52,421 nucleotides of DNA from Candidatus Iainarchaeum sp. (GTDB taxonomy: Archaea; Iainarchaeota; Iainarchaeia; Iainarchaeales; Iainarchaeaceae): assembly GCA_043812975.1 (NCBI GenBank), contig JBDRLP010000001.1:1-52421 (forward strand). Reading direction: 5' to 3'. The position numbers and the translations under genes were made by a program. The notes beneath the pieces are model-generated. The model worked only from the letters and a program-made list of their open reading frames with translations, was not told the DNA's origin and did not search any database. This document shows positions 34,187 to 51,650 of this stretch, piece by piece; position 1 is the stretch's first letter, and each line of letters starts with the position of its first letter.

Positions 34187-34342
34187 TTATCTGATTCTTA
34201 CTTCTTCAACGCCGCTTGCGATCGGCACCCTTACGGGCACATGCGGTACCGCGTCCACCTCACTTTGTTCGGTAGGACTTAGTTCCTTGTTCGCAAACTT
34301 TTTCTAATAATTCTTTTCATCACCTAATTCTTACTTCTTCAA
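34187..34342 (+). repeat. Composite junction element (34207-34294) between nusA and rps12, with a duplicated NusA C-terminus
   Basis: ATTCTTACTTCTTCAA at 34194-34209 and 34327-34342; modules shared with 21001 and 21444. Confidence 0.88.
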
Positions 34343-41015: not shown

Positions 41016-42478
41016 TTAAGTTTCACTCCCATGTCGTTCAATAATTTTTCAACTGGGTCTTCTTCAGTTTCAGTTGTTACTTCTGCAAGCATTGCCAAAT
41101 TTTTTACCAAACCACATTGTGGTCCGTCAGGAGTTTCTACAGGGCATAGTCTTCCCCAGTGGGTTCCGTGAACGTCCCTTGCTTCATAAAGTTCTCTGTT
41201 TTTGTCAAGCGGGCTCTTAACTTTTCTCAGGTCAGTTAATGGAGATAAATAATTAACTCTGTCCATGAACTTTGAAACCCCAGTAGCCCTGCCAATCCAG
41301 TTTCCTGTACTCATAGCAAACCTGATTCTTTCTGATACTGCGCCCGGCCTTACAATAGTTGAAATGTTAAGTTTTCTTCTTCTTGTAACAGTTCTGTCAA
41401 TCTGGAATTTCAAATCTTTAATGAAATATTTGAACGAGTACCTGAATAAGTGTTCCATTAATTTTCCTGACAATTCCAGTCTTTTGTTAGCATAATGGTC
41501 CTTATCATCTTCTTCCCTTAAATCATAAGCTCTTTCAATTGCCTTAGTTGCCATCATAACCAAGTAATATGCTTTAGCAAGCCTGTCTTTTGAATCCTGT
41601 CCAATGTGCGGTAACAGGAAAGCATCTATTACTTCCTGTGCTCTTCTAAGCCTGTACTCTTCCACCTGCCCTGGTGCGACAAATTTCCCGATTTTGTCAA
41701 GAGCTTCTTTTTCAGATTTTACTAATAAATTTTCATTATTAATCAGAACATCATTTTGTACTTCCATTTCATCAACAAAAGCATCCTTAATTGACTGTGA
41801 TGTTTTGATTCCGAGTGCTTTCAGTAAAACAAATAGTTTTAATTTTCTTGGTGAAGCCGGGAAGGTAACATGCAGGAGTCCATCTGGGCTTCTTAAGATT
41901 CTTACTCTTCCTTTGAAAGCGCCTTTAGTTGAGATAACTTCTGCAACAATTTTATCTGTCTGTTCTGAAACAATAACTCTGTCAGAAGCTAAAACTTCCT
42001 GAGTCATCAAAGCTTTTTCAGAACCATTTACAATGAAGTAACCTCCAAAGTCCATTGGGTCTTCTTTTAATTCAATTAGTTCTTCTTTGGTTTTTCCGTT
42101 CAACCAGCAAAGATGACTTTTAAGCATTACGGGTAATTCGCCGATGTAAGTATCTTTCCGATCATGCTCAACATCTCTTCTCAGAAGTTTCATGGTTAAG
42201 TTAATAGGGCTTGAGTAGGTTCTGTTTCTCAGCCTTGCTTCTATTGGGTAGAATTCGTTTCTGGGTGAACCGTCAGCTTCAACAATTCTTGGTTTTAAAA
42301 TACTAATCTTGTCAAACTCAACTTTTACTTCCTCAATCTTAGGAACAACTTCTTTGTTTTCAGCAACAATTTCCGGAAGTTTCTTTTTAACAAACTGGTT
42401 GAAAGAATCAATTTCCATCTGGGCAATATTTCTGTCTCTGAAATAAGAATTGATTAGGGTCCAGCCGTTAATAGCCAT
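41012..42478 (-). CDS. rpoB2: RNA polymerase subunit Rpo2N (B'')
   Basis: IDSFNQFV, EARLRNRTYS, GYFIVNGSEK, HWGRLCPVETP; start at ATG 42478 with GAGGTG SD. Confidence 0.97.
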   Translation of the reverse strand: MAINGWTLINSYFRDRNIAQMEIDSFNQFVKKKLPEIVAENKEVVPKIEEVKVEFDKISILKPRIVEADGSPRNEFYPIEARLRNRTYSSPINLTMKLLRRDVEHDRKDTYIGELPVMLKSHLCWLNGKTKEELIELKEDPMDFGGYFIVNGSEKALMTQEVLASDRVIVSEQTDKIVAEVISTKGAFKGRVRILRSPDGLLHVTFPASPRKLKLFVLLKALGIKTSQSIKDAFVDEMEVQNDVLINNENLLVKSEKEALDKIGKFVAPGQVEEYRLRRAQEVIDAFLLPHIGQDSKDRLAKAYYLVMMATKAIERAYDLREEDDKDHYANKRLELSGKLMEHLFRYSFKYFIKDLKFQIDRTVTRRRKLNISTIVRPGAVSERIRFAMSTGNWIGRATGVSKFMDRVNYLSPLTDLRKVKSPLDKNRELYEARDVHGTHWGRLCPVETPDGPQCGLVKNLAMLAEVTTETEEDPVEKLLNDMGVKLK

Positions 42479-42600
42479 TAAACAACCACCTCGCCGTTTT
42501 CCCACTTCGTGGACTTCGCGACCGGCGGCACCGAAGCACACTGCTTCGCAGTGGGCGTGCTCGCTTCGCTCGCAAAATAATTGCCGATTATACAACCACC
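42477..42600 (+). repeat. Junction element (42492-42573) between rpoH and rpoB'', flanked by a 14-bp near-perfect duplication
   Basis: ATTA(A/T)ACAACCACC at 42477-42490 and 42587-42600. Hairpins CCAC-TTC-GTGG and CACTGC-TTC-GCAGTG; CTCGCTTCGCTCGC module. Confidence 0.88.
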
Positions 42601-48783: not shown

Positions 48784-49677
48784 ATGGAATTACCAAAAGT
48801 AAGCCCCAAAGTAAAGGCAATTAAAGCAAAATTGGCTTCTGCAAAACTACTCGGGATAGTTGTAAAAAACTCTTTACAATTCAAACTCAGAAGAAAAGCT
48901 CTACGACGTTTTAAAGCAACAGAATTTGACACTATTGTTGTCGATATGGATGGTACGCTTTACAAGAGCGATGCAAACCTGGAAGCCTTGAAAGTTGTTT
49001 ATCCTGAATCTGAAAATGGGTTAGTAAAAGGCGAGGAACTTTACGATTCTATTCTTTCAAAAATAGCTTCCGGAACGTATAGTGTTGAACAAGCTATTGT
49101 TGAGGGAAATAAACTTTTGATGAAAAAAAACATGAAAAAGAAGGATTTTTCAAAAGTACTTGATAAAATAAAGTCCGGGATAAGAAAACCTTTGGTGAGG
49201 TCTCTTAAGAAAATGAAAAAATCAGGAAAAACAATTGTGTTAGCAACACTTTCATCAAAAGAATTCGGCGAACTTCTGAATTCTTATCTGAAAAAAGAAT
49301 TTGATTTTTCTTTTGATTTAATTGTAGGCACACAACTTAAGTATGATGTTCAGGGAAAAATTATCGGAGTTAAAAGCATGGTAAGTACAAAAGACACAGT
49401 ATACAAAAAAATCTATGTTAAATCAAAACTCTCAGCTATTCGTGCTGCTCTAGAAGAACAAGGAAAAGAACTGAATTTAAAAAAATCAATCCTTATTACT
49501 GACAGTTATTCTGATATTGACCTTGCAAAAATGTTTGTAACTGTTTTAATACAACCAACAAGATCAACCACTCCGCAAAAAGTTTCCCAAAGATTAAAAT
49601 TAGCTGATTATATTTTCCCTGAAAAATATTTGCAGACTAATTTAGAATCACTTATTCTAGGTCCAGAAATAGAGTAA
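48784..49677 (+). CDS. HAD superfamily hydrolase (SerB-like) with basic N-terminal extension
   Basis: Motif I DMDGT; LATLSS; KLSA; ITDSYSD. Confidence 0.82.
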   Translation: MELPKVSPKVKAIKAKLASAKLLGIVVKNSLQFKLRRKALRRFKATEFDTIVVDMDGTLYKSDANLEALKVVYPESENGLVKGEELYDSILSKIASGTYSVEQAIVEGNKLLMKKNMKKKDFSKVLDKIKSGIRKPLVRSLKKMKKSGKTIVLATLSSKEFGELLNSYLKKEFDFSFDLIVGTQLKYDVQGKIIGVKSMVSTKDTVYKKIYVKSKLSAIRAALEEQGKELNLKKSILITDSYSDIDLAKMFVTVLIQPTRSTTPQKVSQRLKLADYIFPEKYLQTNLESLILGPEIE

Positions 49678-49679
49678 CT

Positions 49680-49856
49680 AAAATTCAATTTTTTCCAGTT
49701 CTACACCGGCTTCTTTCAGCACCACAGTTGCCCCCTTCGGGGATCCCTGTGGGACGGCTGTGGGGTGCGCGTACCATCTTCGTCACGCCTAGTAGGCGGG
49801 ACTCGATGCTACTCAAAATTCAATTTTTTCCAGTTCTACACCGGCTTCTTTCAGCA
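49680..49856 (+). repeat. Palindromic element (49722-49814) flanked by a perfect 42-bp duplication of the dCMP deaminase 3' end
   Basis: AAAATTCAATTTTTTCCAGTTCTACACCGGCTTCTTTCAGCA at 49680-49721 and 49815-49856; core matches 19308-19375. Confidence 0.93.
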
Positions 49857-50814
49857 TTTTAAGTGCGGTTTCTCCAAGAGGATATTCTGCATTGTAAATA
49901 ACTTTTTTGATTCCGGAATTTATAATCATTTTACTGCAGGTTAAGCACGGACTGAAAGTAGTGTAAATAATTGAACCATTAATCGAAGTTCCGTGATAAG
50001 CTGACTGTACTATTGCATTTTCTTCAGCATGGCTGCACAAACATTCATCTAGTTTTGTTCCTCCTTTTGAAAAGGAATTACACCTAGCACAGCCTCCTTC
50101 ATTACAATTTTTTACTCCTCTTGGAGTTCCATTATACCCTGTGGAAATTATTCTCTTATCCTTAACAATAACCGCTGCAACTTTTCTTTTTACACAGTTG
50201 CTTCTCATTGCTACTTCTTTTGCAATGTTCATGAAGTATTCATTCCATGTAGGTCTTTTGAAATCCATCGGTGTTTGTAATAGCAGCGTATCCACTTTTT
50301 CAAACAATTCAGCCATAGATTCGTTATTTTCGATGGCATGTTCTGCCATTTCTGCACACTTGTTCAGTTGTTGTGCACTTTTGTTATCTGAGCCGGACTC
50401 TTTTTCCTCAAGAGCCTTAAATTCTTCCAATGTTTTAGGGTCACCTTCTCTTTTTCTTTCAAGAATCCTTTCAAATCTTTTTTCTTCAGGAGCCACAATA
50501 TTCCACAAATGGAAAGTTCCTAACTCTTGAAAAGCCTTAATTTCATCAGGATTCCTAAGGGAGTCAATAACATAATTCTTGTCTCTTTCAAGGTTATCAA
50601 TAAGAATTTTTGAAAGCACGGCATTGCCCTGTTTTTCTCTTAGTTCATTACCTTTAGCTATCATGTTTTCCCGTGTTTCAGGGATTCCTTCCTTTTTCAG
50701 CACTTCTCTAAGAACATCGGATAATGATTTGTAGTAGAAGCTTTTGCTCTTTAAGTAATCACAAACAGTGCTTTTTCCCGAACAGTATTTTCCAGTCAGA
50801 CCAATTAGAATCAT
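49813..50814 (-). CDS. P-loop nucleoside monophosphate / dephospho-CoA kinase-like domain fused to dCMP deaminase
   Basis: IGLTGKYCSGKST and DSLRNPDE; then RPTWNEYFM, STGYNGTP, HAEENA, PCLTC. Start 50814 with GGGG SD (track start 50856). Confidence 0.9.
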   Translation of the reverse strand: MILIGLTGKYCSGKSTVCDYLKSKSFYYKSLSDVLREVLKKEGIPETRENMIAKGNELREKQGNAVLSKILIDNLERDKNYVIDSLRNPDEIKAFQELGTFHLWNIVAPEEKRFERILERKREGDPKTLEEFKALEEKESGSDNKSAQQLNKCAEMAEHAIENNESMAELFEKVDTLLLQTPMDFKRPTWNEYFMNIAKEVAMRSNCVKRKVAAVIVKDKRIISTGYNGTPRGVKNCNEGGCARCNSFSKGGTKLDECLCSHAEENAIVQSAYHGTSINGSIIYTTFSPCLTCSKMIINSGIKKVIYNAEYPLGETALKMLKEAGVELEKIEF

Positions 50815-50852
50815 TTTTAACCCCAAGAATGAGTGTTTGGAAGGTTTTATAT

Positions 50853-51650
50853 TCAATTAGCCTTTTGCTCTGAAACAACAGGCTTTTGGTAAAAATGCAG
50901 GTACACGAGCACAATTCCAATTCCTATTATAATCGCCTGAATTCCAATTGTTTCAAATGTAGGATATAATCCCAAATCCTTGATTTTTGGAACTATTGCA
51001 AAAGTAGTTTCTGACAAAACCCCTGCTTCCTGTAATTCGTGGATTCCTTTTCCTGCAAACTTCAATGAAAGTAAAAACAGGATTGTACTTGTTATTCCAA
51101 ACACAATATTTATCGGTAATTTCTTTTCAATTTTTATAATCAAATAAAACAATATTGCCAGAACTAAAAATCCAAGAACAATTCCTATGATTATTCCGGT
51201 CATGTCTGTTGTACCTACAGTTAATGCCTTGAAGAACAATACTGTTTCAAACCCTTCTCTGTATACTGCAAAGAACGATACAATGCCTAATGCGAAAGTG
51301 TTTTTGCTTGTTAATGCATCGTCAACTTTTCTTTTAATGAATTTTGCCCATTTTTGTGCCCGCATTTTTCCAAGGAACCAGTTGGTTACATAAAGCATAA
51401 CTGCAGCGGCAAGAAGCATTGTGATTCCTTCGAGTAATTCAGTCTGTGTTTCTGTCGCTATAAAAATTTGATCTAGCAAAAAAGCAGTTGCAAAACTTGC
51501 TAATATTGCAAGCCCAGTCCAGAGATAAACAGTATTAATTTTATCTTTGTGTTTTGTGGTTACAAGGTATGCAATTATTGCGGCTATGATTAGAATAGCC
51601 TCAAGGCCTTCCCGAACTATAATTGTAAATGCATCTAAAAATTCAGGCAT
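50853..51650 (-). CDS. FTR1/EfeU iron permease
   Basis: Two REGxE motifs (VREGLEA, YREGFET); multiple TM segments. Confidence 0.93.
   Translation of the reverse strand: MPEFLDAFTIIVREGLEAILIIAAIIAYLVTTKHKDKINTVYLWTGLAILASFATAFLLDQIFIATETQTELLEGITMLLAAAVMLYVTNWFLGKMRAQKWAKFIKRKVDDALTSKNTFALGIVSFFAVYREGFETVLFFKALTVGTTDMTGIIIGIVLGFLVLAILFYLIIKIEKKLPINIVFGITSTILFLLSLKFAGKGIHELQEAGVLSETTFAIVPKIKDLGLYPTFETIGIQAIIIGIGIVLVYLHFYQKPVVSEQKAN

Follow-up and report, generated by a model that had tools for sequence, protein, structure and literature searches.

A probable GC-rich two-hairpin mobile element behind a kinase-deaminase gene of Candidatus Iainarchaeum, and the reading frames of its copies at gene junctions and gene ends

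Introduction

Rickettsia palindromic elements (RPEs) are bacterial repeats of 100-150 bp that are tolerated in frame in the coding genes of an AT-rich, reduced genome; we know of no report that ties them to long target duplications. REPs, to our knowledge, do not duplicate tens of target bases and are not read as ORFs, nor are we aware of an organellar hairpin element that makes 20-40-bp duplications rebuilding gene ends. In the mitochondria of sponges, repetitive, hairpin-forming, GC-rich elements are found in an AT-rich organelle genome (PMC2800124). Mycobacterial interspersed repetitive units (MIRUs) are short repeats that insert at start codons, at gene junctions in operons, with an internal ORF that is coupled to the downstream gene at a -4 spacing, limiting the damage done by insertion (PMC12548453).

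We analyzed a window of 52,421 nucleotides, the whole of the stretch under study, from Candidatus Iainarchaeum sp. (contig JBDRLP010000001.1). Positions 49678-49856 probably represent a recent insertion of a non-autonomous mobile element, a GC-rich pair of hairpins of ~93 nt, which is frame-filtered at gene junctions and whose stop codons at this site were inherited. The insertion lies at the end of a kinase-deaminase gene, and its family bears likenesses to each of the systems above.

Junction copies of this hairpin family insert as MIRUs do and would couple in the same way, in a comparison of function; sequence homology is not to be expected between two domains of life and two such different structures. 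Unlike MIRUs, the family is archaeal, consists of GC-rich double hairpins in an AT-rich genome, makes variable duplications of 7-47 bp, also lies inside genes, at convergent gene ends and beside tRNAs, and forms no tandem VNTR arrays; its deaminase copy, moreover, is without a bridge ORF. As with RPEs, the copies inside genes are palindromic and are read in frame in an AT-rich, reduced genome, whereas the deaminase copy lies behind a stop codon and is predicted to be untranslated. Stable hairpins at gene 3' ends, often between convergent genes, recall REP/BIME sequences, but the Y1/RAYT transposase (Y1_Tnp, PF01797) was absent from this 94%-complete genome in a search whose controls were positive. 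With yeast mitochondrial GC clusters, the sponge elements and 'byp' elements the family shares short GC-rich hairpins that invade an AT-rich compact genome, coding regions included, and growth by nesting one hairpin in another. The sequence prerequisites of bypassing, as in 'byp' or gene 60 (matching take-off and landing codons and a stop after take-off), are trivially given by the 42-bp repeat at the deaminase gene. The family is also like MITEs in its small size, its lack of autonomy, its many copies, the direct repeats on its flanks and the empty sites seen in relatives. It differs from them in lacking terminal inverted repeats (its ends lie in separate, non-complementary hairpins) and in a duplication length that is not fixed (about 7 to 47 bp), and we found no cognate transposase. 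Variable duplication length is the sole resemblance to a SINE-like retroelement, and a profile search for the reverse transcriptase RVT_1 (PF00078) found none in the genome.

An archaeal host, a two-hairpin modular build and long, variable target duplications set the family apart from all of the systems compared. We found no description of it in the literature on repeat elements of DPANN archaea or Iainarchaeota. It appears to represent a mode of life of selfish DNA not described before, in a very small archaeal genome dense with genes: long target duplications restore whichever signal the insertion splits, at gene ends, stop/start overlaps, promoters and tRNA ends alike. What the present analysis adds is a census of junction and terminal copies, an empty and a re-struck site in sister species, and the inheritance of the stop codons.

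Results and Discussion

The end of the kinase-deaminase gene is duplicated around a GC-rich insert

The host assembly (1.24 Mb in 68 contigs, 35% GC, 94% complete) carries archaeal markers, including L19e, L5, split RNA polymerase subunits of the Rpb1/Rpb2 type, a geranylgeranyl reductase and a cis-prenyltransferase. The minus-strand gene at 49813..50856, assigned from the ORF list, Pfam and orthologues, specifies a fusion of a P-loop kinase with a dCMP deaminase (AAA_18, AAA_17 and dCMP_cyt_deam_1), and its orthologues in genomes of the same genus are 93-94% identical. An exact-protein look-up with the deaminase found no other contig encoding it. Converging on this gene from the plus strand is a gene for a HAD-family hydrolase (48784..49677; ORF list and Pfam).

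The last 13 codons of the kinase-deaminase gene, together with the first base of its stop codon, form the proximal copy of a 42-bp target duplication (49815..49856, minus strand). The distal copy is at 49680..49721 on the same strand and in the frame of the gene. Read on the plus strand, the two segments are identical at 42/42 bases, with 135 nt (45 codons) from start to start; an exact repeat of 42 nt rules out chance. The gene ends with KIEF followed by TGA (49813-49815, minus strand), at the 5' edge of the insert. In the distal copy KIEF is followed by TAG (49678..49680, minus strand), which would be the relic stop of the former gene end and which the TAA stop of the HAD gene (49675-49677, plus strand) directly adjoins. 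The first-pass annotation had described the 42-bp duplication, the 135-nt period, the two versions of the gene end, the in-frame stops and the convergent HAD gene, and on re-examination it was correct on each.

Between the two copies lies the element proper, a GC-rich insert of 93 nt (49722..49814, minus strand) delimited by its GC island, its fold and BLAST clustering. It is 63% GC, as against 35% for the genome, and neither Rfam nor ARAGORN gave a match at the insert site. The predicted structure consists of two compound hairpins, each with a smaller nested hairpin (RNA fold of -45.9 kcal/mol, z -3.7; z -2.5 when folded as DNA). Hairpin 1 (49769..49812, minus strand), defined by the fold and by alignment to other copies, contains a nested palindrome that holds both in-frame stops: a TAG in its loop (49789..49791, minus strand) and a TGA at its 3' foot (49783..49785, minus strand). 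Hairpin 2 (49722..49768, minus strand; also from the fold) has the stem CCACAG/CTGTGG and carries nested hairpins in its loop. The deaminase copy thus fits the build of the family, in which hairpin 1 is followed by a short linker and by hairpin 2 with a CCAC(A/C)G...C(G/T)GTGG stem. The 5' edge in the family is usually TAA or TAG and then GT. It reads TGA at the deaminase copy, indicating that the element itself supplies the new stop codon.

With TGA preceding the insert and two more stops inside it, the insert is not expected to be translated as part of the host protein. No co-oriented gene follows, no start codon lies near the stop, and the copy has no bridge ORF. Past the TGA at 49783-49785 the frame of the gene meets no further stop in the element or anywhere in the distal copy. 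Of the remaining sense frames of the insert, one contains a single stop and the other none.

The element family in the genome and its relatives

The genome carries ~70 oriented copies of the element, and in BLAST clustering of GC islands the deaminase insert grouped with about 70 others, 16 of them in the window. By alignment its closest relatives are C68:3405-3510, an intergenic copy and the closest overall, and C21:18215-18320. Twenty-seven copies of the present genome have the hairpin-2 motif, which also occurs in 18 of 22 other genomes of the family; the reversed control pattern gave no matches. Direct repeats of local sequence, 12-47 bp long, flank at least 26 of the copies in the genome; over all copies, those of relatives included, duplication lengths range from about 7 to 47 bp. 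Duplications of 7-47 bp match no known transposition chemistry. The genome encodes one TnpB-like ORF (Cas12f1-like_TNB; C9:1277-1474, ~408 aa), whose contig bears two copies of the element as well.

To class the copies by setting, genes were called by a simple ORF and codon-bias method, the copies were oriented and inspected singly, and the classes were curated by eye. About 24 copies lie at tight co-oriented junctions, and 16 follow a gene end whose neighbor converges or is distant. A further ~10 are read in frame inside genes, including copies read through in the tails of ribosomal proteins; seven adjoin tRNA genes and a few are antisense or in 5' regions. At 22 of the 24 junction copies elsewhere in the genome, an internal ORF overlaps both the upstream stop and the downstream start, and junction copies carry ATGA overlaps at both ends.

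The deaminase site in sister species

In G001, a genome of the same genus with 94% protein identity, the site is empty: KIEF is followed by TGA, and the stop of the convergent HAD gene comes one base later. A third genome of the genus, G003, has a different element subtype at the end of the same deaminase gene, with a duplication of ~24 bp. The empty site and the different subtype together indicate that the deaminase copy is a recent insertion with target duplication, and that this gene end has been struck at least twice, independently. The loci compared at the deaminase end were window positions 49678-49856 and L002/L018 (G003), which differ in subtype and duplication length, and L003 (G001).

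A second convergent gene end is occupied in three sister species (C27:49341 in the present genome, G000, L041 in G003 and L028 in G005), with duplications that vary in length. The recurrence at the same convergent ends points either to a target preference for gene ends or to very few tolerated sites.

We also considered whether a strain-chimeric assembly could have produced the duplication and rejected it; dozens of copies have duplications and sharp element boundaries, and the empty site and the independent insertion come from separate genomes.

Reading frames at junction and terminal copies

Each copy with a clear duplication was scored in the frame set by the distal duplicate of the upstream gene's stop codon, and it counted as open if that frame had no stop from the real stop codon as far as the distal repeat. 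Relatives were sampled through a simple hairpin-2 motif, and 66 of its 111 matches, having no duplication with a score of at least 12, were left unclassified. Two loci were left out, L097 because it contains an N and L102 because its repeat lies between two tandem hairpins. On inspection L120 was reclassified as terminal and L049 as an uncoupled junction.

In this genome 10 of the 12 junction copies are open by this measure; of the other two, one extends the N-terminus of the downstream gene in frame, and the second is broken. Seven of the eight terminal copies are open as well (p 1.0), the deaminase copy being the sole closed one. The relatives added seven junction sites, all open, and six terminal sites, two of them open. 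This gives small totals of 19 junction and 14 terminal sites, among which some of those of the relatives may be non-independent, with 17-18/19 open at junctions and 9/14 at gene ends (p 0.11-0.06). The first-pass annotation had named equal openness of terminal and junction copies as the outcome that would speak against its reading. Equality was found within the genome, and the pooled sites lean toward a difference that by itself is not significant.

The other two frames of the same inserts, taken as a neutral baseline, are open in 16/40 cases (~40%). Against it the bridging frames at junctions are enriched for openness (17-18/19, p 5e-4), while terminal copies do not stand out (9/14, p 0.13). 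Length tells the same two classes apart. The insert plus its duplication measures 2 mod 3 at 16/19 junction sites (binomial p 7e-6), whereas at the 14 terminal sites the period modulo 3 takes the values 0, 1 and 2 in six, three and five cases (junction vs terminal, p 0.009). A length of 2 mod 3 is the one that puts the duplicated start in frame with the duplicated stop where genes overlap as ATGA or TAATG. Between orthologous copies at junctions the length differences are 30 and 45 nt (C57:13086 vs L013; L081 vs L086), since nested hairpins are added in multiples of three and the bridge ORF stays in frame. At one convergent gene end that is occupied in several species, the copies differ in length by 5, 8 and 13 nt.

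Part of the openness is intrinsic. The hairpins are GC-rich and poor in stops, and the stop codons of the host are AT-rich. In the GC-rich cores ~2.3 of the three sense frames are open, compared with ~1.9 in shuffles, a figure that serves as an indication of stop-poor cores because core-only scoring cut the elements to 20-80 nt and lost their AT-rich 5' filler.

Whether bridge frames are selected or automatic therefore has a double answer, and both hold: the elements are stop-poor by composition, and a filter for length modulo 3 and an open frame operates only at junctions. At junctions, selection acts as a filter on an element that is poor in stops to begin with, and a single terminal copy shows little. 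The initial claims had been that frames stay open solely at sites that require coupling, and that this favors selection over an intrinsic property of the element. The junction filter and the excess over baseline bear out selection at coupled junctions. The first claim is not supported, since most terminal copies are open (seven of eight in the genome), and the second holds only in part, as the cores themselves exceed their shuffles. In the same way the idea of a natural control holds for the terminal copies as a class, which behaves like the neutral baseline, and fails for the deaminase copy alone, since most other terminal copies are open; a single element copy is unsuitable as a control.

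The stop codons of the deaminase copy

The nested palindrome module, with the same TGA, is shared with C21:18192, another copy at a convergent gene end. No junction copy carries this stop-bearing module, as expected of a filter acting at insertion or on survival. As the 42-bp duplication is without any substitution, the stops were present when the element arrived. Alignment thus argues that both extra stops were inherited from the source lineage, not acquired at the deaminase site. The deaminase copy is properly described as tolerated where no particular frame is required, and not as having lost an ORF that it had ceased to need.

Proposed course of the insertion and alternatives to it

We propose that the element entered the last 13 codons of the kinase-deaminase gene and duplicated 42 bp of its target. 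The upstream copy of the duplication would have kept the complete C-terminus, closed by the stop at the element's 5' edge, and what had been the end of the gene would be left farther downstream, no longer translated and hard against the stop of the convergent HAD gene. The palindrome nested in hairpin 1 of the source lineage would have brought both extra in-frame stops, which would be tolerated because nothing beyond the insert requires ribosomes to traverse it. On this proposal the hairpin cores are intrinsically poor in stop codons. At tightly coupled junctions an insertion would survive only with the right length modulo 3 and an open frame from duplicated start to duplicated stop, and at convergent gene ends it could survive in any frame provided that the duplication covers the gene end. 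We infer that the filter acts through translational coupling. The junction copies may thus offer comparative evidence that coupling by termination and reinitiation is under strong selection in the ribosomal-protein and RNA-polymerase operons of DPANN archaea.

The stops at the deaminase site could instead be a footprint of relaxed selection, with an open frame kept by selection only at junctions and decaying elsewhere. This copy does have two extra stops in the gene frame, no junction copy has stops in its bridging frame apart from the broken C1:34190, and in the pooled sites closed frames are more frequent at gene ends (5/14) than at junctions (1-2/19). We nonetheless consider decay quite improbable, because a duplication identical at 42/42 positions leaves almost no time for it, the stops sit in a nested palindrome common to other non-junction copies, and 7/8 terminal copies of the genome are stop-free in the equivalent frame. 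The hairpins might also be kept at convergent ends for their use as 3'-end stabilizers or read-through barriers, in the manner of REP/BIME sequences, in which case their coding capacity would be irrelevant. A very stable structure, at least 15 copies in the genome that follow a gene whose neighbor is converging or distant, and the presence of elements at the same convergent ends in sister species (G000 and G003 at the deaminase gene; G000, G003 and G005 at the second end) are all consistent with such a role. However, G001 keeps both genes without any element at the deaminase site, copies are equally common at junctions, inside genes and beside tRNAs, and the recurrence fits as well with a target preference or with few insertion-tolerant places in a compact genome, making this explanation unlikely.

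According to a further alternative, ribosomes hop from one repeat to the other, or the insert is removed from the RNA, so that the distal copy encodes the real C-terminus. Identical take-off and landing sequences around a stable hairpin that starts with a stop codon are arranged as in known bypass elements, and third codon positions account for 16/22 of the differences between terminal duplication copies, which are thus mostly synonymous. At the deaminase gene, though, either route yields the same protein and skipping is not required. The element ends do not pair and the fold has no apparent bulge-helix-bulge splice motif, the periods at terminal sites are not multiples of 3, and the synonymous pattern has simpler causes, either change in the coding copy only or recombination with element-free alleles. 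Skipping is accordingly a highly improbable account of the locus. An archaeal bulge-helix-bulge intron was rejected separately, as the insert forms two independent hairpins with unpaired ends. Recent insertion of a two-hairpin mobile element remains the reading that we prefer.

Synonymous differences between terminal duplication copies

Where the two duplication copies of a terminal site mismatch, the codon position affected in the upstream gene is 1, 2 or 3 in 4, 2 and 16 cases, respectively. These mismatches come from C44:44763, C21:14377, C44:14641, C21:18192 and C27:49341 in G000 and from L018, L040 and L084. Stop codons are interchanged among TAA, TAG and TGA at these copies. A dead, freely drifting relic does not predict such a bias toward third positions. 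Possibly changes occur in the coding copy alone, the relic being constrained by its neighbor's terminator; it is also possible that the relic recombines with element-free alleles. Expression of the relic is much less likely as a cause.

It is very unlikely that the duplicated gene ends are not dead relics and that the insert is skipped between identical repeats by ribosomes or by excision at the RNA level, although the near-absence of non-synonymous differences, and a frame that is usually open on the way into the distal copy, would fit such skipping. Were this true, the family would be an archaeal counterpart of the mitochondrial 'byp' elements and of the bypassing in phage T4 gene 60, and the long duplications that accompany every insertion would be accounted for.

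Copies in other settings

Two junction copies in the window depart from the common pattern. The copy at 42469-42590 has an open bridging frame of the right phase (period 110), and either the duplicated start is now ATC or the downstream gene is extended from a TTG. Among the junction copies of the window, only the one at 34190-34295 (C1:34190) is clearly broken, with a period of 133 (1 mod 3). Its 14-codon ORF ends at the TAA of the element's 5' edge, and the downstream gene has a Shine-Dalgarno-like motif of its own.

Antisense copies at C65:2720 (G000), L022 (G003) and L027 (G004) have an open mini-ORF that begins at the duplicated start codon and ends in a stop located at the real one; the L027 site has no upstream co-oriented gene. 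That bridge ORFs arise from antisense copies (C65:2720, L022) indicates that the ORF is created by duplication of the stop and start and not by a gene borne on the element.

Several copies are flush with the 5' end of a tRNA gene or have the 3' end of the tRNA duplicated (C20:34902, C42:1346, C52:226, C25:51415, C12:19214 and C23:18002; L036 and L017). The 47-bp duplication of the copy at C14:21894 spans a TATA-box-like motif and the start of the neighboring gene, so that here a promoter region, and not a gene end, was duplicated.
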